NCBI GenBank assembly: GCA_964652415.1
Contig: CAZZDG010000002.1
Span: forward strand, 1-40,802
Direction: 5' to 3'
Length of the DNA stretch: 40,802 bases
Origin: an uncultured Pseudomonadales bacterium
Lineage (GTDB): Bacteria; Patescibacteriota; Microgenomatia; UBA1400; PJMF01
The notes beneath the pieces are model-generated. The model was given only the letters and a program-made list of their open reading frames with translations, was not told where the DNA came from and searched no databases. Both the position numbers and the translations under genes were made by a program. Shown one piece after another: positions 8,338 through 40,802 of this stretch. The stretch's first letter is position 1. Each line of letters opens with the position of its first letter.

Positions 8338-9501
8338 ATGGTTAATAAGTTGCGGTGGTTTTTAAGCAAAATTTTCATTCCATTTGGAATTACCAGGGTG
8401 TTATTGTTGTTTGTAGGTTTCGCTTCTCAATATTTTTTGCCTGTACATAGTGGCCAAAATGACGCTATTAGGGTAACTGGATTACAGTTTTCAGAGAATC
8501 GATTGATTGATATGTGGGCACGTTGGGATAGTGGCTGGTATCTATATATTATAAAAAACGGATACAGTAGTGGTGGGAGCTTTGAGATTCAAAGTAATTT
8601 GCCATTTTTTCCTGGATACCCTGTTTTAGTGAAGTTTTTTACTTTGTTTGTTCCTTCTAGTTTGTTGAATGATGGAGTTATTGTTTTGATAGGTATTCTG
8701 TTATCTAATGTTTTGTTGTTAGTTAGTTTGATATTTTTGTGCAAGATTGCACACAAACTCAGCGATTCTAAACGAGTTGCCGACTTAACGGTTTGGTTTA
8801 TTTTGGCTTTTCCAAGTAGTTTTTTCTTATCAAGTTTTTATACAGAATCTTTGTTTTTATGTTTGTCTGCAGTTGGGTATTGGGCTGCGCTAAAGAAAAA
8901 GTGGTGGCTGGCATGTATTATGGTGAGTTTAGTTGCCGTAACAAGAAACGTAGGATTATTTTTAGTGATTCCCGTGTTGTACGAGTACTTGAAAGCTAAA
9001 AACTTTTCTTTACAGAAGATTGATTTTTCCGTTTTGTGGTTTGGAGTTATTCCATTCGGATTGGGTGTTTTTTTTTGGTATTTATATACTTTGACTGGCG
9101 ATTTTTTGGCGGCAATTAAAGTGCAAGCAGCATGGGGTCGAGTTGCTGCTGATCCAGTGAGTTCTCTACTCTTTCCTACTAATTTTTGGTTGCATATAAC
9201 TCCAGTTGATCAATTTTTTGTAGTTAGTGTTTTGGTGTTCTGTTGGAGATTGTTTACTCAAAAGGTACTAAAAAATGGTAAGATTCTTGCCTTGTATTCT
9301 CTATTAATGTCTATTCCTACTCTTTTTACAGGAACTTTAGACTCTTTTACGAGATATATTTTGGTTGTTTTTCCCCTGTTTATATATTGGGCTAGCGTGA
9401 CTAAAGATAACAAGCGATTTGCTACGGGAGCGATTGTGGTGTTTTTAGTAGTTCAGCTGATTTATTTTGGGTTATTTTCCCAGTTTTATTGGGTTGGGTA
9501 G
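8338..9501 (+). CDS. Polytopic membrane glycosyltransferase, PIG-V/Mannosyl_trans2-like
   Basis: 387 aa, multi-TM. The segment WARWDSGWYLYIIKNGY...LPFFPGYP resembles the WD..wY..ia..GY...aFfPlyP signature of PIG-V-type mannosyltransferases. It is divergent from the 4982-8278 gene. Confidence 0.5.
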   Translation: MVNKLRWFLSKIFIPFGITRVLLLFVGFASQYFLPVHSGQNDAIRVTGLQFSENRLIDMWARWDSGWYLYIIKNGYSSGGSFEIQSNLPFFPGYPVLVKFFTLFVPSSLLNDGVIVLIGILLSNVLLLVSLIFLCKIAHKLSDSKRVADLTVWFILAFPSSFFLSSFYTESLFLCLSAVGYWAALKKKWWLACIMVSLVAVTRNVGLFLVIPVLYEYLKAKNFSLQKIDFSVLWFGVIPFGLGVFFWYLYTLTGDFLAAIKVQAAWGRVAADPVSSLLFPTNFWLHITPVDQFFVVSVLVFCWRLFTQKVLKNGKILALYSLLMSIPTLFTGTLDSFTRYILVVFPLFIYWASVTKDNKRFATGAIVVFLVVQLIYFGLFSQFYWVG

Positions 9502-9536
9502 TTTTTTTTTGATTAGTTAAAATAGTGTTTAAGACG

Positions 9537-9568
9537 CAAAAACGGCACTCTTTTGGAGTGCCGTTTTT
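9537..9568. terminator. Bidirectional intrinsic terminator
   Basis: 9-bp stem ACGGCACTC/GAGTGCCGT (9542-9550 / 9556-9564) with a 5-nt loop, flanked by an A5 run on the left and a T5 run on the right. It sits between convergent genes. Confidence 0.8.
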
Positions 9569-9619
9569 AACTAGATATACATGGATAAGGTGGAAGGGCT
9601 CGTGTCTTAGCCCAACCTT

Positions 9620-10753
9620 TTAGTGGGTGCCGTAGGCAACCACGTTGGTCCAGACCGTTTCCCACCCCGCATCGGCGGTGTGGAGCATGAGGGTTAAGCT
9701 CATGTCATTCAAGTCCAGCACCCATTGGTAGAAGCGGTCATTATCGCCGGGCCCGGAGCCGTTGTTGTTGCGCTCATGGGCGTTTTCGGCTTGAGCTGTG
9801 CTATATCCTTGCGAAAACCATTGAGCCATTGCAGGCTCCACCGTATATTCTGTCCAACTCGCGGCGCCAGGGGCGCCATAGTCGGAAATGATAACGGTGG
9901 TATTCAGGTCCTCGCCCGGCCGTTCAAGCCAGTTGCGGATAAGGAGGCCTTGCCCGCAATGGGCGCCGCAGGTCGGGATATTCAGCACGATGAAAGGGTT
10001 GCCAGCAGGGCCGATTTCTACGCGGCCAAAGTTGAGGGCATATGCATCACAGTAACTGCCCTCGGGGCAAAGCATAGAGAATTCTGAAGCGGCGTTATCG
10101 GGGCTTCCGTGCCAGATGCCACCCCAGACGGCAGAGCCGTTGGCTTGGGCTTCTTTGTAGTCGTCGGCCAACAGAACGCCTTCTGGTCCGTACACGTTGC
10201 AAGCGCCCGGCATATTGCAGCCGGTTGAAGCGCGTTTCCAAGTCTGCGAAACGCTTTTCCACGAATCCAAGGCGGTCTGGGTTTGATACCAGCCGCCATT
10301 GGGCGACAGCTCACTCGGCGCCCAGCCGGACATCGTGATCGGGCCGTCGAAACCGTCCAAATTCAGGGTGAATGTGGGGGTCAGGACAACCGTTTCGGTC
10401 GGTTCGGGGGCGGCCGTGGCTTCAGCCTTCGGACAAGACAAGTTAGTTTCGCCAACGGTCCAGACATCGCCAGAGCGCATGGAGTAGACGAGTTTTTTTT
10501 CTTTCGACTCGTATTGACCATTGCAGTCTGTCAAGCTGGTGTGGGTTAAAACCACCTCATCTTCCGAACATTCCACTTCGTAGTTACCCACCTGCGTGGT
10601 GCCAACTTCGACCACATAGCTCATGCTGTTGATTTTGCCTTTGCAGACGTAACCTTCAGCTGGAGCAGCGGGAGTGGGCGCAGTCGTCCCGCCGCAAGCG
10701 GCGAGCGCGAGGATCATGGCCAAGAGGCCAAAGCGTAAAAGCAACTTAATCAT
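9620..10753 (-). CDS. Cys-rich secreted lipoprotein of unknown family, encoded on a high-GC island
   Basis: I prefer ATG at 10753 (AAGGAG-N7-ATG) over the track's TTG at 10825. N-terminus MIKLLLRFGLLAMILALAAC|GG is a signal peptide plus lipobox. It has APTPAAPA and ATAAPEPTE linkers and 13 Cys in the mature part. I recognise no family motif. G+C is about 58-62% against about 28-42% in neighbouring genes. Confidence 0.75.
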   Translation of the reverse strand: MIKLLLRFGLLAMILALAACGGTTAPTPAAPAEGYVCKGKINSMSYVVEVGTTQVGNYEVECSEDEVVLTHTSLTDCNGQYESKEKKLVYSMRSGDVWTVGETNLSCPKAEATAAPEPTETVVLTPTFTLNLDGFDGPITMSGWAPSELSPNGGWYQTQTALDSWKSVSQTWKRASTGCNMPGACNVYGPEGVLLADDYKEAQANGSAVWGGIWHGSPDNAASEFSMLCPEGSYCDAYALNFGRVEIGPAGNPFIVLNIPTCGAHCGQGLLIRNWLERPGEDLNTTVIISDYGAPGAASWTEYTVEPAMAQWFSQGYSTAQAENAHERNNNGSGPGDNDRFYQWVLDLNDMSLTLMLHTADAGWETVWTNVVAYGTH

Positions 10754-10756
10754 CGG

Positions 10757-11161
10757 GAGTCTCCTTAAGATTTGTTTGTATGCACTTGGGGTTAAGCCCA
10801 AGTGCAAATTGAAATTGATTGACAATTAAACAGAGGCTGCCGAAAGACTGCCTCTGGAAAGTGGGTTAGTGAGATCTTCCAGGACACATCTGGTTGATCT
10901 CGCGCTATTGTTTTGTTTTACCAAAACAACACTGCGAGACCACCAAACGTGTCTTTTCTTATTTTTGTATATCTTTGTTAAAGAGCTGACTCTTTCGAAT
11001 ACACTTGTAAACAAGGATTCAAGCAAGTCTGCGTTTCCTGTAAAACAATTTTGATCGCTTAGAAATATGTAAATATATTTGTAGCAATTTTGAGTGTTTA
11101 ACAGGTGAATATTTATATGTCAGTCTTAATAAAGAAATATATACATTCATCTACCAAATAC
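10757..11161 (-). promoter_or_regulatory. About 400-nt ORF-poor, hairpin-rich transcript segment (long 5' leader of the lipoprotein gene, or an independent ncRNA)
   Basis: It lies downstream of the consensus promoter at 11168-11196. Hairpins are at 10896-10941 (8+8 bp; a G.U wobble forms only in minus-sense RNA), 10831-10856 (terminator-like) and 10781-10806 (perfect 10 bp). Only short, basic, SD-less ORFs are present. Confidence 0.4.
10831..10856 (-). terminator. Terminator/attenuator-like hairpin about 75 nt upstream of the lipoprotein ATG
   Basis: Minus-sense sequence is CAGAGGC-AGTCTTTCGGCA-GCCTCTG: a 7-bp GC-rich stem plus 3 inner pairs, followed by TTTAATT. The U-tract is imperfect. 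Confidence 0.4.
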
Positions 11162-11167
11162 ACACAT

Positions 11168-11196
11168 AGTATATCAAACTAATGTATACTTGTCAA
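11168..11196 (-). promoter_or_regulatory. Near-consensus sigma70-type promoter (TTGACA-17-TGaTATACT)
   Basis: On the minus strand, -35 TTGACA is at 11191-11196, the spacer is 17 nt, and the extended -10 TGA+TATACT is at 11168-11176. It lies 45 nt downstream of the sortase stop and points toward 10757. Confidence 0.6.
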
Positions 11197-11238
11197 GTAT
11201 TATAGGACGGAAACAGAATATGTCAAAATTTGTCGGTA

Positions 11239-11877
11239 TTATTGAGAGATGAGTTTCGCATACCTAAAAATTCGTATGTCCGACTCGAGGAATCTACACG
11301 TATACAAGATTAGATCTGCTGTGTAATGGGTAATCTCAGTACCATCTTCACTCTGGTAGATTTCATATATAAACCTTCTCTGGTCCCAGATAATCTCTAC
11401 TCTATCACCATTCTCTAGCTCAGGTAGATTAAAAAATGAGTTCTCTTCTCTAAATTGTTGGGTCCAGTTTAAATATCCAAATCTATGTGCAACTAAAATT
11501 ATTGGCGGACCCTCTTTTATTGGCACACCAAAATCAGGCACTCTCCAAACTCCTTGTTGTAATGCTGATTCATAATTTTCTTGAGGTGCTTCCAAAATTT
11601 GAGTTTCTACACCTATTTTTGGAATTCTAACAATTGTTTCTTTTGGAAGCGTGAGGTCTTGTTCTGGAAGTACAAACTCAGATTGGGGCTCTAGTACTTG
11701 AATTTCTGAGGTTGTGACAGGTTTAGCAAGTAGTTTGGCGAGAGCAGCACTGGTTTTGGGAAAAATTATATTCCAAACTAATGCAGCAACAGGATAGCTT
11801 ACCATCACAAAAGCAACGACGAAGCAAAGAAATGAGCTAATAAGTAATGTACGTGATATTTTCATTCTGGTGTTCAT
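11239..11877 (-). CDS. Sortase-family transpeptidase
   Basis: N-terminal TM anchor. Candidate catalytic triad: IILVAHR (His), DLILYTC (TLxTC-type Cys), IRIFRY (Arg). VRIPKIGV is a typical first strand. 212 aa. Confidence 0.75.
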   Translation of the reverse strand: MNTRMKISRTLLISSFLCFVVAFVMVSYPVAALVWNIIFPKTSAALAKLLAKPVTTSEIQVLEPQSEFVLPEQDLTLPKETIVRIPKIGVETQILEAPQENYESALQQGVWRVPDFGVPIKEGPPIILVAHRFGYLNWTQQFREENSFFNLPELENGDRVEIIWDQRRFIYEIYQSEDGTEITHYTADLILYTCRFLESDIRIFRYAKLISQ

Positions 11878-11885
11878 TATATTGC

Positions 11886-11925
11886 AAAAACTCCCGCTCA
11901 GATAGTATATCTGAAACGGGAGTTT
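11886..11925 (-). terminator. Intrinsic terminator/attenuator between the 77-aa gene and the sortase gene
   Basis: Two-tier hairpin AAACTCCCG..TCAGATA-gta-TATCTGA..CGGGAGTTT followed by a T5 run on the minus strand. The sortase ATG lies only 11 nt beyond the hairpin, so the sortase gene must be expressed by read-through. Confidence 0.7.
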
Positions 11926-11942
11926 AATTACATAAATTTAAT

Positions 11943-12176
11943 TTATTTTGTCTTTTTGAGTAAGATTGCAGTAGTAATCATACCGGTAAGGGCTGATCCA
12001 GCTAAAACAACCTGAGGGAGCACATCAGTAAGTCCAGCGTTAACTGGGGTATGAGTGGTTACTCCAAGCACGACATCAGAACCGTAGATGGCAGCGACTG
12101 GTGAATAACTTGCGCCAGCAAGGTATACAAGACCAAAAAGTCCTAATGTAGTTCCGATTTTTGTTATGTTTTTCAT
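11943..12176 (-). CDS. 77-aa secreted/membrane mini-protein, candidate sortase substrate
   Basis: N-terminal signal-like segment MKNITKIGTTLGLFGLVYLAGA. The C-terminus LPQVV-LAGSALTGMITTAILL-KKTK has the tripartite sorting-signal layout: motif, 16 hydrophobic residues, basic tail. AAGGAA SD, consensus promoter, own terminator, and the sortase gene immediately downstream. Confidence 0.6.
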   Translation of the reverse strand: MKNITKIGTTLGLFGLVYLAGASYSPVAAIYGSDVVLGVTTHTPVNAGLTDVLPQVVLAGSALTGMITTAILLKKTK

Positions 12177-12221
12177 AATTTATTCCTTATTACTTTACTT
12201 GTGTTTTTTAAACACGAGATT

Positions 12222-12250
12222 ATTATATCCTATAACTAACTTTTTGTCAA
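12222..12250 (-). promoter_or_regulatory. Perfect consensus sigma70-type promoter (TTGACA-17-TATAAT) for the 77-aa gene
   Basis: On the minus strand, -35 is at 12245-12250 and -10 at 12222-12227, with an exact 17-nt spacer. The spacer contains TTATAGGATA. Confidence 0.75.
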
Positions 12251-12301
12251 CTATAATATATCAAATGATAACAATTATAAATTTCACAGTAAAATAAAAA
12301 T

Positions 12302-12329
12302 TTGTGCTTCCAGAAAAATCAGGTATACT
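12302..12329 (+). promoter_or_regulatory. Candidate promoter for the PBP gene (TTGTGC-16-TATACT)
   Basis: Hexamers are at 12302-12307 and 12324-12329. Confidence 0.4.
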
Positions 12330-12383
12330 TGGAGATATTATTAAAGTGTCGTACCCCGGAGTGCTATACCAGAGGATACACAA

Positions 12384-15182
12384 GTGAAAATAAATATTAC
12401 AAAATTCAAGCAAAAAAGCTCAGAAATTGTTGCGCAACTATTAGAAACTGCTCAAGAACAAATTGGGGTCAAATTTCCCAAAATAAGGAATATCATGCCA
12501 AAATCTTCACGTAGTCGTAGGTTTAGAGCTAATTCAGGGTCAATTTTTGCTCCACAAAATCGCCAACTACTTTATGCTAAACTGTTGAGATTTTTTGCTT
12601 TTGGAAGTTTGGCTGCTGTTATAGGTGGAGTTATACTCTTTTTTGTGATGTTTGCTTGGTTCTCAAGAAGTTTGCCAAAACCGGGTGAAGTTGTGCGGCG
12701 TGAAGGTTTTAGCACTCAAATCTTAGATAGAAATGGCAACTTGTTATACGATCTCTTCAATGATGAAAGAAGAACTCCTGTAACGATTGCTCAAATTCCA
12801 GTTGATTTGCAACATGCAGTCGTTGCAACAGAAGACAAAGATTTTTATACACATCGGGGTTTTGATTTTTTAACTATCTTGAGAATTCCATATAATATTC
12901 TATTTAAACAGCGTGTTGTTGGTGGTTCTACTCTTACCCAACAGTTGGTAAAAAATGCTCTGCTTACTAATGAAAGAAGTATTACTAGAAAATTTAAAGA
13001 GCTGGTTTTATCTCTGCAAATTGAGAGAAAATTTACAAAAGATCAGATTTTAGAAATGTATCTTAACGAAGCTCCATATGGCGGAACTGCCTGGGGTGTT
13101 GGTACAGCAAGTGAAGTGTATTTCAACAAACCTGTGAACGAGTTGAACTTAGTTCAGTCAGCAATTCTGGCTGGATTACCTCAACGCCCATCTGCATATT
13201 CTCCATATGCAGGTAAAACTGACGAAGACGGTGTTCCACTTTGGAGAGTCCGTACCATGGGAGTGCTCCGTCGTATGCGTGAAGATGAGTATATTACAGA
13301 AGCTGCATACCAACAGGCCTTGGGTGACTTAGATTCTGTGGTTTTTGAAAAATCAGCAATTGATATAAAAGCACCACATTTTGTATTTTATGTCCGTGAT
13401 CTGCTTACGCAGATGTATGGCGAAGAAGCCGTTGATGCTGGTGGTTTTAAAGTGACTACAACCCTGAATGTTGATTTGCAAGAAAAAGCACAGGAAGTTG
13501 TTGCCAACGAAATTGCAAAGGTTGAAAAACTCAATATAACTAATGGTGCCGCACTCGTAATGGATCCAAGAAATGGTGAAATATTAAGTATGGTTGGGAG
13601 TCGTGATTATCATAGCTCTTCTATTAGTGGGCAGTTTAATGTTGTTGTTGATGGACTCAGACAACCTGGTTCTTCAATCAAACCAGTTACCTATTTGGCA
13701 ATGTTGCAACGTGGCTATACACCTGCGAGCATGTTGATGGATGTTGAAACAGTTTTTGCTCCACACGAAAATGCTAAAGAATACAATCCTAAAAACTATG
13801 ATGGCAAGTTTAGAGGTCCGGTTAACTTAAGAAATAGTTTGGGTAGTTCTTTAAATATTCCTGCCGTTAAGTCACTTGCAATAGTTGGTGTGCAGGACTT
13901 CTTAAGCCTTGCGTACGACATGGGTTTTGTAACTCTAGAGCCAACAAAAGAAAATATGAGCAGGTTTGGTTTGGCAGTTACTCTTGGTGGTGCTGAAATT
14001 CATATGATCGATACTGTTACTGCCTACTCTTCTTTTGCAAATTATGGCCAAAAAGTTGAGCCAGTTGCCATTCTTAAAATTGAGGATACAAAAGGTAACG
14101 TTATTTTTGAGCACAGACCAGTGCAAGGACGTAAGGTTATTGAGGAAGAAGAAGCATTTTTAATTAATCATATTCTTTCTGATAACAATGCGCGTGCGAT
14201 TGCGTTTGGCACGGGTTCGCTCCTAAATGTCAGTCCAAATGTTGCGGTTAAAACTGGTACTACTAATGATCAAAAAGATAACTGGGCAATTGGTTGGAGT
14301 AGTGAGCTAATTGTTGGAGCTTGGGTAGGAAATAATGACAATACTTCAATGAAAAGCGTTGCCTCCGGTGTTTCTGGTGCTACTCCAATATGGCGTAATA
14401 TTATTGTAGAAGCGCTTAAAATTGATGGGTACAAAGCTCCTGAATGGAGAGTTCCAGATGGTGTTGAACAGGTAACTGTAGATAAAATATCTGGATATCC
14501 TGAACATGATGGTTTTGAAACTCGTTCTGAGTATGTGATTAAGGGTACGCTTCCAAGTTTGCCAGATCCAATTCACTCCAAATTAAAACTTTGTAGAGGT
14601 GAAAATAAGTTAGCCCCAAATGCGCGTATTGCTGGTGGCGACTATGATGAAAAAGAGTTTTTGATTTTCAAAGAAGAAGATCCATTTAGTACTGATGGAG
14701 TAAATAGATGGCAGACTGCTATTGATGCTTGGATCGCATCTCAAGGTGATGAAAGATATCGCCCACCAACTGAATACTGTGGTGACCAAGGAGAGATTTA
14801 TATTTCGATAAAAGATCCAGGTGATCATTCAAACTTTGATGGAACTAATATCAAGATTAAAGTTGAGGCAGAAGCACCTGATGGGATTGAGTATTTAGAG
14901 TTGTATATCAATAGTGATTCTCCTATTAGAGTAAATGATAGAAAAATTGATGATAACTTTACCCTACCAAAAGGAAAATATGTGATTCGTGCAAAAGCTC
15001 ATACAAAGGGCGGCAAAGATAAAGAGACAGGCAGCATTCGTATTGGTACTGGTGGTACAAAATGGGATGAGCCAGATCCAACTCCTACCCCTACCCCATC
15101 TCCAATACCGACTCCGACAGTGACACCCACTCCAACCCCAACGGCAACACCGATTCCTACACCACCAGGAAAATCGAATTAG
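12384..15182 (+). CDS. Class A penicillin-binding protein (glycosyltransferase + transpeptidase) with a C-terminal Ig-like domain and Pro/Thr tail
   Basis: GT51 motifs ATEDKDFYTHRGFD and GGSTLTQQLVKN. Transpeptidase motifs SSIKP (SxxK) and KTGTT. The C-terminus ends in a PTPTPTPSPIPTPTVTPTPTPTATPIPTPP tail. The start is ambiguous: GTG at 12384 (GAGGA SD) or ATG at 12495 (AAGGAA SD). Confidence 0.9.
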   Translation: MKINITKFKQKSSEIVAQLLETAQEQIGVKFPKIRNIMPKSSRSRRFRANSGSIFAPQNRQLLYAKLLRFFAFGSLAAVIGGVILFFVMFAWFSRSLPKPGEVVRREGFSTQILDRNGNLLYDLFNDERRTPVTIAQIPVDLQHAVVATEDKDFYTHRGFDFLTILRIPYNILFKQRVVGGSTLTQQLVKNALLTNERSITRKFKELVLSLQIERKFTKDQILEMYLNEAPYGGTAWGVGTASEVYFNKPVNELNLVQSAILAGLPQRPSAYSPYAGKTDEDGVPLWRVRTMGVLRRMREDEYITEAAYQQALGDLDSVVFEKSAIDIKAPHFVFYVRDLLTQMYGEEAVDAGGFKVTTTLNVDLQEKAQEVVANEIAKVEKLNITNGAALVMDPRNGEILSMVGSRDYHSSSISGQFNVVVDGLRQPGSSIKPVTYLAMLQRGYTPASMLMDVETVFAPHENAKEYNPKNYDGKFRGPVNLRNSLGSSLNIPAVKSLAIVGVQDFLSLAYDMGFVTLEPTKENMSRFGLAVTLGGAEIHMIDTVTAYSSFANYGQKVEPVAILKIEDTKGNVIFEHRPVQGRKVIEEEEAFLINHILSDNNARAIAFGTGSLLNVSPNVAVKTGTTNDQKDNWAIGWSSELIVGAWVGNNDNTSMKSVASGVSGATPIWRNIIVEALKIDGYKAPEWRVPDGVEQVTVDKISGYPEHDGFETRSEYVIKGTLPSLPDPIHSKLKLCRGENKLAPNARIAGGDYDEKEFLIFKEEDPFSTDGVNRWQTAIDAWIASQGDERYRPPTEYCGDQGEIYISIKDPGDHSNFDGTNIKIKVEAEAPDGIEYLELYINSDSPIRVNDRKIDDNFTLPKGKYVIRAKAHTKGGKDKETGSIRIGTGGTKWDEPDPTPTPTPSPIPTPTVTPTPTPTATPIPTPPGKSN

Positions 15183-17833: not shown

Positions 17834-17862
17834 ATTATACCATCAAATCATGTAATTGTTAA
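17834..17862 (-). promoter_or_regulatory. Candidate infC operon promoter (TTAACA-17-TGgTATAAT)
   Basis: On the minus strand, -35 is at 17857-17862 and the extended -10 at 17834-17842. This leaves a leader of about 110 nt before infC. Confidence 0.5.
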
Positions 17863-17883
17863 AGAGAAAATATTTGATATAAT
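17856..17883 (+). promoter_or_regulatory. Candidate tRNA-Val promoter (TTGTTA-16-TGaTATAAT)
   Basis: -35 is at 17856-17861 and -10 at 17878-17883, preceded by TGA. The tRNA starts about 18 nt after the -10. Its -35 overlaps the -35 of the divergent infC promoter. Confidence 0.55.
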
Positions 17884-39980: not shown

Positions 39981-40011
39981 AAAACAAAAAAACCACCGAG
40001 TTATGGTGGTT
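39981..40011 (-). terminator. Intrinsic terminator about 170 nt downstream of the 16S 3' end
   Basis: Minus-sense sequence is AACCACC-ataactc-GGTGGTT followed by TTTTTGTTTTT. Confidence 0.75.
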
Positions 40012-40178
40012 TCTAATATGAGTTAAACATTTTTAGTTAAGAGAAAGACAAATTCTGGTGCAAACATGGTGATAGAGCCGACCTGGATATGGTGGTCTCA
40101 GGATTTTTGTTAGGTAATTCGTTTCGTATTGCTACAAAACGGGAATGGGAGGTCGTGATACTCCTACCCATCTCCTTA

Positions 40179-40802
<624 letters not shown>

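Follow-up and report, generated by a model that had tools for sequence, protein, structure and literature searches.

The stretch of DNA analysed here, referred to as the window, comprises 40,802 nucleotides (nt) of contig CAZZDG010000002.1 (assembly GCA_964652415.1), which is deposited under the name of an uncultured Pseudomonadales bacterium. On its minus strand a sortase gene (11877..11239, stop codon at 11241..11239) is separated by a gap of 485 nt from the gene of a lipoprotein (9620..10766, including the ribosome-binding site, RBS), and this gap, which appears to encode a structured leader RNA with a boxA element, is the subject of the present work. Upstream of the sortase lies the gene of a protein of 77 amino acids (aa) with a C-terminal sorting signal (12176..11943, minus strand); downstream, the lipoprotein gene converges with the gene of a PIG-V-type mannosyltransferase on the plus strand (8338..9501). 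Between the two convergent genes a perfect hairpin of 13 base pairs (bp), flanked by runs of A and of T (9538..9568), likely marks the end of the transcription unit. An initial annotation, made from the letters of the DNA, had noted an orphan promoter followed by about 400 nt of structured RNA, poor in open reading frames (ORFs), ahead of a lipoprotein gene of foreign character, and had considered a riboswitch or attenuator-type leader, an independent non-coding RNA (ncRNA) or a terminator brought along from a donor genome.

The promoter TTGACA-17-TGaTATACT is indeed present on the minus strand at 11168..11196; it matches the consensus at 11 of 12 positions and carries the TG of an extended -10 element. 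Its distance from the sortase stop codon had been given as 45 nt, which is close, the gap between the stop codon and the -35 element being 42 nt. A start of transcription is predicted at about 11161–11163, and the residues G11161 to G11163 are plausible as its site. The next credible start codon is, as had been proposed, the ATG at 10753, which is preceded by the RBS AAGGAG (10766..10761) and opens a reading frame (stop at 9620) beginning with a lipobox signal peptide. Directly upstream of the main promoter a second promoter-like site was found, a perfect TTGACA-16-TATAAT (11199..11226, minus strand); its -10 element (TCCTATAAT) is kept in related organisms, its -35 element occurs in the window only. 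The main promoter itself (CTTGAC...TTTGATATACT) is kept, exactly or with one change in the -10 element, in seven of the eight organisms with upstream sequence; in locus L015 (loci from public data bear L numbers) CTTGAC is retained and the extended -10 element is more diverged (AATGCTATACT). The promoter is therefore no orphan, since in the relatives it is the conserved promoter of a unit consisting of leader and lipoprotein gene. Three of the 12 promoter-like sites in the region 9000–12500 are near-perfect, and all three face minus-strand units; a perfect TTGACA-17-TATAAT is located at 12222–12250 (minus strand), ahead of the genes for the 77-aa sorting-signal protein and the sortase.

Searches among 5.8 billion, with a profile query as well, gave nine protein clusters besides the lipoprotein's own and no more. 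The order sortase, gap, lipoprotein gene was found in five loci of other organisms (L001, L008, L010, L015, L018/L019) as well as in L007, which duplicates the contig of the window itself. In each of these the sortase has the sorting-signal protein before it, and the lipoprotein has the mannosyltransferase after it. The contigs of L005, L009, L012 and L016 end upstream of the lipoprotein gene, so that the downstream half was seen; in L013 and L011 the neighbours are partly different and the leader still stands with the lipoprotein gene. From promoter to start codon the gap can be aligned in all eight organisms with upstream sequence, and a ninth, divergent locus (L011) shows the same layout, with flanks of the leader that are no longer alignable. 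Compared with L010, identity is 89% in the leader, 86% in the sortase, 80% in the mannosyltransferase and 74% in the lipoprotein gene; conservation of the leader is thus equal to or higher than that of the flanking coding genes. For the alignments, a gap of 100 N in the leader of L001 (3740–3900), with the same 55 nt on both sides, was collapsed; this duplication is a scaffolding artefact. No small ORF is conserved: ORFs of at least 15 aa vary in start, frame and extent between the members, and none is common to L001, L013, L015 and L011. A translated small ORF which would explain the region, named earlier as a ground for refuting it, is therefore not in evidence. A pattern search (ACCTGT..GCAGA..TCAGCTCTTTAAC) gave three matches in metagenome contigs, all by chance and inside coding sequence, and none in viral contigs. 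In profile and pattern searches the leader RNA was never seen without the lipoprotein gene, and it is therefore read as a leader, not a separate RNA. Its known range in public data is about nine organisms of one clade.

Folding of the minus strand (422 nt, from 11161 to 10740, including 14 nt of coding sequence) yielded a minimum free energy of -131.9 kcal/mol, compared to -81.7 ± 5.5 kcal/mol for shuffled sequences (standard score z = -9.2; none of 100 shuffles was as good); for the plus strand z was -5.0. The divergent members L013, L015 and L011, when folded on their own, show the same architecture, and z ranged from -6.7 to -9.2 over four members including the window. The helices predicted for the window, designated S1 to S4, were projected onto an alignment of eight sequences for the assessment of covariation; their 84 pairs are 87.7% paired, versus 37–44% when the partners are slid by 1–3 columns, values which are to be read with the caveat that there are only eight related sequences, from a narrow clade, one of them being the source of the structure. 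Compensatory double changes occur in 23 pairs, versus 7–10 in the slid controls, and none of 500 shuffles reached the observed value. Covariation in relatives, which had been suggested as a check, is thus found. At seven helix positions G.U is the commonest pair, which would be A.C if the other strand were transcribed; the RNA is therefore assigned to the minus strand, in agreement with the argument made earlier from a single pair. No match in the interval was obtained with Rfam 15 at the gathering score, and expectation values (E) of up to 10 brought only noise of the type of microRNA hairpins (at most 23 bits, with thresholds of at least 43 bits), which speaks against a known riboswitch. The proposal of a structured RNA of the leader class ahead of the lipoprotein gene is upheld by its conservation, covariation and strand, and we consider it moderately probable, judging from the aligned sequences, that the interval is a conserved multi-helix 5' leader of the lipoprotein mRNA, with a length of about 410 nt. 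Such a structured RNA would be new and without a counterpart in Rfam.

All parts of the leader lie on the minus strand and are given here from 5' to 3'. S1, the 5' hairpin (11107..11148), contains helix 1, which is 94.7% paired with four compensatory pairs. S2 (11037..11105) is a branched stem (helices 3–5) closed by CCUGU...ACAGG, with three compensatory pairs in the closing stem, and holds the invariant motif ACCUGU. S3 (10985..11032) is a hairpin (GCAGACU...AGUCAGC) which abuts boxA and so occupies the position of boxB in leaders of ribosomal RNA (rRNA); its pair 193:232 is CG in five sequences, AU in two and UA in one, and its pair 194:231 is UA in five and AU in two. The boxA element, GCUCUUUAACAA (10975..10986), agrees with the consensus in its first 11 nt. 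It is followed after 22 nt by S4, a long helix of about 30 bp (10884..10952; helices 7–8, 91% and 98% paired, six compensatory pairs) with the 5' arm X (10952..10936) and the 3' arm Y (10901..10884). A hairpin of twice 8 bp with an internal loop had been recognised earlier at 10896–10941; it is present, as part of this larger helix, which extends over 10952..10884. The apical loop of S4 varies from 6 to about 100 nt. Large insertions in the leader occur only in helix loops, namely in L001, L013 and L015 at this apex and in L015 also in the 5' hairpin. S4 is a likely substrate of RNase III. The alternative hairpin S5 (10871..10901) excludes the base of S4. S6 (10831..10856) is a G+C-rich hairpin, terminator-like in some members only, and in the window it is followed by UUUAAUU, as had been described. 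S7 (10772..10806) contains the perfect 10-bp hairpin already reported (10806..10781), which runs into GCAUACAAACAA (10783..10772); the segment GCAUACAAAC is invariant in the seven closer members. A 12-nt inner stem-loop of S7 present in relatives is deleted in the window and in L018; compensatory changes can be seen by eye in L001, and the automatic alignment, which misplaces the deletion, counts several of the pairs as broken. Finally, the 5' end of the RNA (GUGUAUUU) could pair with AGAUAUAC just past boxA; with compensatory changes in L013 only, this long-range helix is a weak candidate.

The boxA core, GCUCUUUAACA (GCTCTTTAACA; 10986..10976, minus strand), had escaped the initial annotation. 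It agrees at every position with GYTCTTTAANA, the consensus of functional NusB/NusE sites given by Baniulyte et al. 2017 (PMC5725501). Nowhere else in the 40.8 kb of the window does this consensus recur; by chance about 0.6 matches would be expected in the whole window and about 0.003 in the leader. The element is invariant in nine of nine loci of the family, including L011, where the leader of about 520 nt is preceded by a promoter of its own (TTGCGC-17-TGcTATAAT). It is situated about 175 nt past the conserved promoter on the same strand, between S3 and S4, and is mostly unpaired in the predicted folds. Its distance to the AUG ranges from 222 nt in the window to about 470 nt in L001. For comparison, rRNA operons of related Microgenomates were recovered by means of the 3' end of 16S rRNA, 16 of them with a leader. 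12-mers resembling boxA were detected in 15 of these 16 leaders, 41–331 nt before the 16S rRNA gene, and five have the exact consensus (GCTCTTTAACAA or GTTCTTTAACAA); the motif is therefore taken to be the rRNA boxA of this clade. The order of elements in Escherichia coli rRNA leaders is boxB, boxA and then boxC inside the leader-trailer helix, with an RNase III site (PMC10250234). A descent of the present leader from an rRNA leader, as a homologue or copy, was considered and rejected, since in a profile search and in local alignments only boxA was common to both and the gene downstream encodes a lipoprotein and not rRNA. Two other candidates were also discarded. A 10-mer of the 16S rRNA trailer (GAGACCACCA) is complementary to arm X at chance level, the real trailer partner of the rRNA leader being a different segment. 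A near-match to boxA with one mismatch (TCTCTTTAACAA, 17867..17856, minus strand) coincides with the -35 element of an infC promoter (TTAACA-17-TGgTATAAT); it lies ahead of the genes encoding IF3 (infC) and the ribosomal protein L20 and is probably outside the RNA.

Arm Y (GAGAUCAACCAG) is able to pair not only with arm X, but also with the conserved segment Z (CUGGAAGAUCUC, 10882..10871), forming S5, and S5 did form in eight of eight sequences once arm X was blocked in silico. Changes in Y are matched in Z: CCAG/CUGG in most members, CCUG/CAGG in L001 and L015, CCAU/AUGG in L012, and elsewhere GAGAUC/GAUCUC against GAGACC/GGUCUC; in L013 the pair differs and is still fully complementary (GAG(A)UCAGCC/GGCUGACUC). 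As arm X is altered too in L001 and L015 (UUGG to UAGG), the three strands change together. On the automatic alignment, in which L013 and L015 are misplaced, S5 is 85% paired versus 23–45% in slid controls and does not exceed the shuffle control; overall, the sequence comparison lends the S5 pairing moderate support. Of the mutually exclusive helices which had been suspected in the leader, one pair, S4 versus S5, is thereby supported.

With these elements a mechanism can be outlined, and the boxA directs it to Nus-factor antitermination, instead of the switch or attenuator envisaged in the initial annotation. From the conserved strong promoter transcription would start at about 11161, and the nascent RNA would fold into S1 to S3. 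The single-stranded boxA (10986..10975) could then recruit NusB-NusE(S10), which, together with NusA and NusG, would render RNA polymerase resistant to termination, as on rRNA operons. The polymerase so modified should read through the hairpin-rich untranslated leader including S6, shielded from Rho. S4 would form 22 nt past boxA, where rRNA leaders have boxC and the leader-trailer helix, and a cut by RNase III is probable there; after the cut Y could refold with Z, so that S5 would cap the mature mRNA at, or close to, its newly made 5' end. The outcome would be a strong and robust expression of a variable surface lipoprotein. That the leader acts in this manner, i.e., in Nus-factor-dependent, rRNA-like antitermination and processing for the lipoprotein mRNA, we regard as somewhat probable from its sequence features; all of its steps, from transcription and the binding of Nus factors through antitermination to cleavage by RNase III and the effect on expression, are what we infer. 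The organism would then probably use its rRNA transcription machinery for the expression of a surface lipoprotein. A bolder formulation is offered tentatively: the unit could be a mimic of an rRNA operon, with promoter, boxB-like hairpin, boxA and a self-closing helix with X/Y/Z refolding, by which the machinery for antitermination, chaperoning and RNase III processing of rRNA would produce and mature the mRNA of a rapidly evolving surface lipoprotein, and perhaps the first protein gene under Nus/boxA control outside of Proteobacteria and phages. Control of protein-coding genes by boxA and Nus factors would in that case extend to the candidate phyla radiation, in which gene regulation is almost unstudied, and the lipoprotein, which is specific to the lineage, would be a probable highly expressed surface component of uncultured, likely host-dependent cells.

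Several observations weigh against this mechanism. S4 is more stable than S5 by 12–21 kcal/mol, and S5 therefore needs a trigger, for which RNase III cleavage of S4 would be the simplest candidate. The compensatory changes reflect few independent events among 8–9 sequences of a narrow clade. The rRNA leader of the organism itself lies past the end of the contig; in L045, the closest relative by 16S rRNA, the rRNA boxA is degenerate (GAACATTAACAA, three mismatches), and neither an nhmmer profile nor Smith-Waterman alignment against shuffles revealed any similarity to rRNA leaders beyond boxA. As an 11-nt motif inside a conserved RNA, boxA could be conserved for structural reasons alone. Neither nus genes nor rho or rnc were among the 25 window ORFs scanned, and in the RNA runs which were searched no transcript covers the leader. 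One run from freshwater sediment labelled as RNA-Seq (X21) contained a contig of 177 nt corresponding to 9592–9768, which reproduces exactly the 3' end of the lipoprotein gene together with 28 nt past the stop codon, and none over the leader; this run may contain DNA as well. The freshwater sediment runs X1 and X2 contain the organism at full identity.

Among other explanations, a new riboswitch or protein-responsive switch, in which X is captured, or S1–S3 are stabilised, by a ligand, protein or trans-acting RNA, so that S4 gives way to S5, survives best, and it is still unlikely. It would account for two mutually exclusive helices which are both conserved, for the linked changes of three strands (UUGG/CCAG/CUGG in most members versus UAGG/CCUG/CAGG in L001 and L015, with a different pair in L013) and for the large, conserved multi-helix 5' domain, and it could coexist with a functional boxA. 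However, the three-way change may be a single event, the covariation of S5 is not above the shuffle control on the automatic alignment, and no Rfam class matches. S5 is without a U-tract and leaves the RBS uncovered, so that an output is not obvious, and the lipoprotein, matched neither in Pfam nor in a structure search, suggests no ligand. A riboswitch or attenuator leader would share the long, conserved and structured 5' untranslated region (UTR) and the exclusive helices S4/S5; it differs in that here neither a curated class, nor a conserved terminator, nor an RBS-sequestering helix tied to the switch, nor a leader peptide was found. An attenuator based on the terminator-like hairpin is not supported. 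The helix of CUGGAA (10882–10877) with UUCCAG (10859–10854), noted earlier as a weak alternative to the terminator stem, is present and perfect in the window, weaker and bulged in L018 and absent elsewhere, and neither this competing antiterminator nor the U-tract is conserved.

Slightly less probable still is an independent, stable ncRNA of about 300–330 nt ending at S6, with the lipoprotein expressed separately or by read-through, as had been envisaged with an end at 10831. In its favour, S6 of the window forms a strong hairpin, rich in G+C and followed by UUUAAUU, in L005 it is followed by CAUUUUUAC, and boxA-modified polymerase is otherwise used for stable RNAs (rRNA). S6 is kept as a G+C-rich stem of differing sequence in most members, but L001 is without such a stem, and the U-tract is not conserved, L010 and L012 having AAAACAAA, i.e., A-tracts, in its place; a conserved terminator between boxA and the gene was accordingly not found. 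Moreover, a boxA-modified polymerase would be expected to proceed past such a terminator, and conservation continues beyond S6 through S7 and its invariant GCAUACAAAC to the RBS. A second promoter before the gene is not conserved, and the 12-nt indel would alter the spacing of any such promoter; also, the RNA was never found without the gene. A share of the transcripts may nevertheless end at S6 in this organism.

A third alternative, improbable in our estimate, retains the boxA and reverses its effect: as in suhB, the Nus complex would repress by a block of translation leading to Rho termination, and not promote read-through. Experiments in E. coli have shown that Nus factors and boxA repress genes other than those for rRNA, among them a gene taken from Citrobacter koseri (PMC5725501); the genome search in that study was limited to boxA sequences at most 50 nt from a start codon, and regulation from further upstream was called possible. 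Between the boxA considered here and the AUG there are at least 222 nt and several stable helices, and the order of hairpin, boxA and long helix resembles that of rRNA; the distance of 222–470 nt therefore fits antitermination better than a translational block of the suhB type, whose reach is about 50 nt. That the interval is non-functional (terminators from a donor, the remains of a mobile element, or a small ORF that is translated) is very improbable, since, notwithstanding a G+C content which climbs across the interval towards the G+C-rich gene and a 17-nt imperfect inverted repeat flanking 9573–10974, it is conserved no less than the genes beside it, covariation is strong and indicates selection rather than a hairpin carried in from a donor, the promoter is conserved, no ORF is conserved and the locus is syntenic across relatives.

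The preferred reading, antitermination through boxA, may be set beside known systems. The rrn antitermination complex consists of NusA, NusB, NusE, NusG, SuhB and the protein S4. With bacterial rRNA leaders the present leader has in common a strong sigma-70-type promoter with a promoter-like site upstream, the succession of hairpin, boxA and GU-rich strand of a helix of about 30 bp in the same 5'–3' order, and the same boxA motif in related Microgenomates. It differs from them by the protein-coding gene which follows, by a long helix which closes on itself over a loop of 6 to about 100 nt and not around the 1.5-kb rRNA, and by the extra domains S1, S2 and S5 to S7, boxA being the sole sequence in common. 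Like suhB and C. koseri CKO_00699, it is the 5' UTR of an mRNA and includes a boxA of consensus sequence; in the genome search of that work, however, boxA is at most 50 nt from the start, and it is repressing in the cases tested, while here it lies 222–470 nt away in a large structure, in the candidate phyla radiation, and ahead of a lipoprotein gene instead of a translation-related or toxin gene (PMC5725501). A further resemblance exists to the nut sites of phage lambda and to put and EAR leaders, i.e., to structured RNAs which make the polymerase termination-resistant in cis. The put sites of HK022 and the EAR elements of Bacillus are RNA-based processive antitermination leaders. Unlike lambda nut and EAR, the present case has no N-like protein, no phage context and no match to EAR or another family in Rfam, and its boxA is of the cellular rrn type. 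Control of protein genes by boxA is known in gamma-proteobacteria; new is the large, covarying, rRNA-style leader before a lipoprotein gene of the candidate phyla radiation.

The lipoprotein starts with a signal peptide (lipobox LAAC). The N-terminal part (100–130 residues) is variable and rich in Ala, Pro and Glu, or swapped, and the cysteines of the conserved C-terminal domain (about 250 aa) are invariant. In L018 (3001–4089) an N-terminus of the window type (84% identity) is joined to a very divergent C-terminal part; such a mosaic suggests recombination or diversification of a surface protein. In L011, homopolymer errors in an A-run and a G-run (2641–2720, 3001) break the start of the gene, which was called 120 codons short; the real start at 2641 encodes MKKIVVLLALLVVLVALAACGG. 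No match in Pfam and no further homologues by profile search were found for the lipoprotein; its AlphaFold model is weak (pLDDT 62.7) and gave no structural match (best E 0.056, TM-score at most 0.16). On the basis of its sequence, a variable surface protein beside a sortase system would be the best description.

The G+C content of the gene is 52–58% in genomes of 36–42%, in every relative, and G+C at third codon positions amounts to 0.49–0.78 versus 0.24–0.39 in neighbouring genes (L001, L005, L008, L010, L013, L015, L018); it stays high despite conserved synteny and 48–67% amino acid identity over the full alignment. Since a G+C-rich gene is at the same place throughout the clade, its "foreign" character is old and stable, and a recent acquisition, as implied earlier, is not supported. 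The G+C-rich segment is enclosed almost exactly by an imperfect inverted repeat of 17 nt (9573–9589 and 10958–10974, 82% complementary), which could be due to chance or represent an old insertion scar, a recent insertion being disfavoured because synteny is kept in all relatives.

As to the host lineage, the 16S rRNA fragment at the end of the window has its best match in L045 (97.9% identity), with the next matches at about 92%. The list of matches consists mostly of Shapirobacteria, Woesebacteria and Collierbacteria, and the organism-named matches at 91–92% include genomes labelled Pacebacteria and Paceibacterota; by this sequence the organism is placed in the Microgenomates group of the candidate phyla radiation. 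L029, L032, L035, L045 and others carry 16S rRNA genes of the Microgenomates type under the titles "uncultured Gammaproteobacteria" or "uncultured Pseudomonadales", labels which look wrong for such contigs. In the regions 39990–40180 of the window (minus strand) and 2100–2420 and 3860–4330 of L045, the 16S rRNA gene is followed by a terminator and protein-coding genes, with no 23S rRNA gene adjoining, and the rRNA genes are therefore unlinked. A segment of the 16S rRNA trailer (GCUCUAUCACCAUGUUUG) is complementary to a segment of the rRNA leader of the close relative L045 (AAACAUGGUGAUAGAAC), and the two would form the leader-trailer helix of the rRNA.

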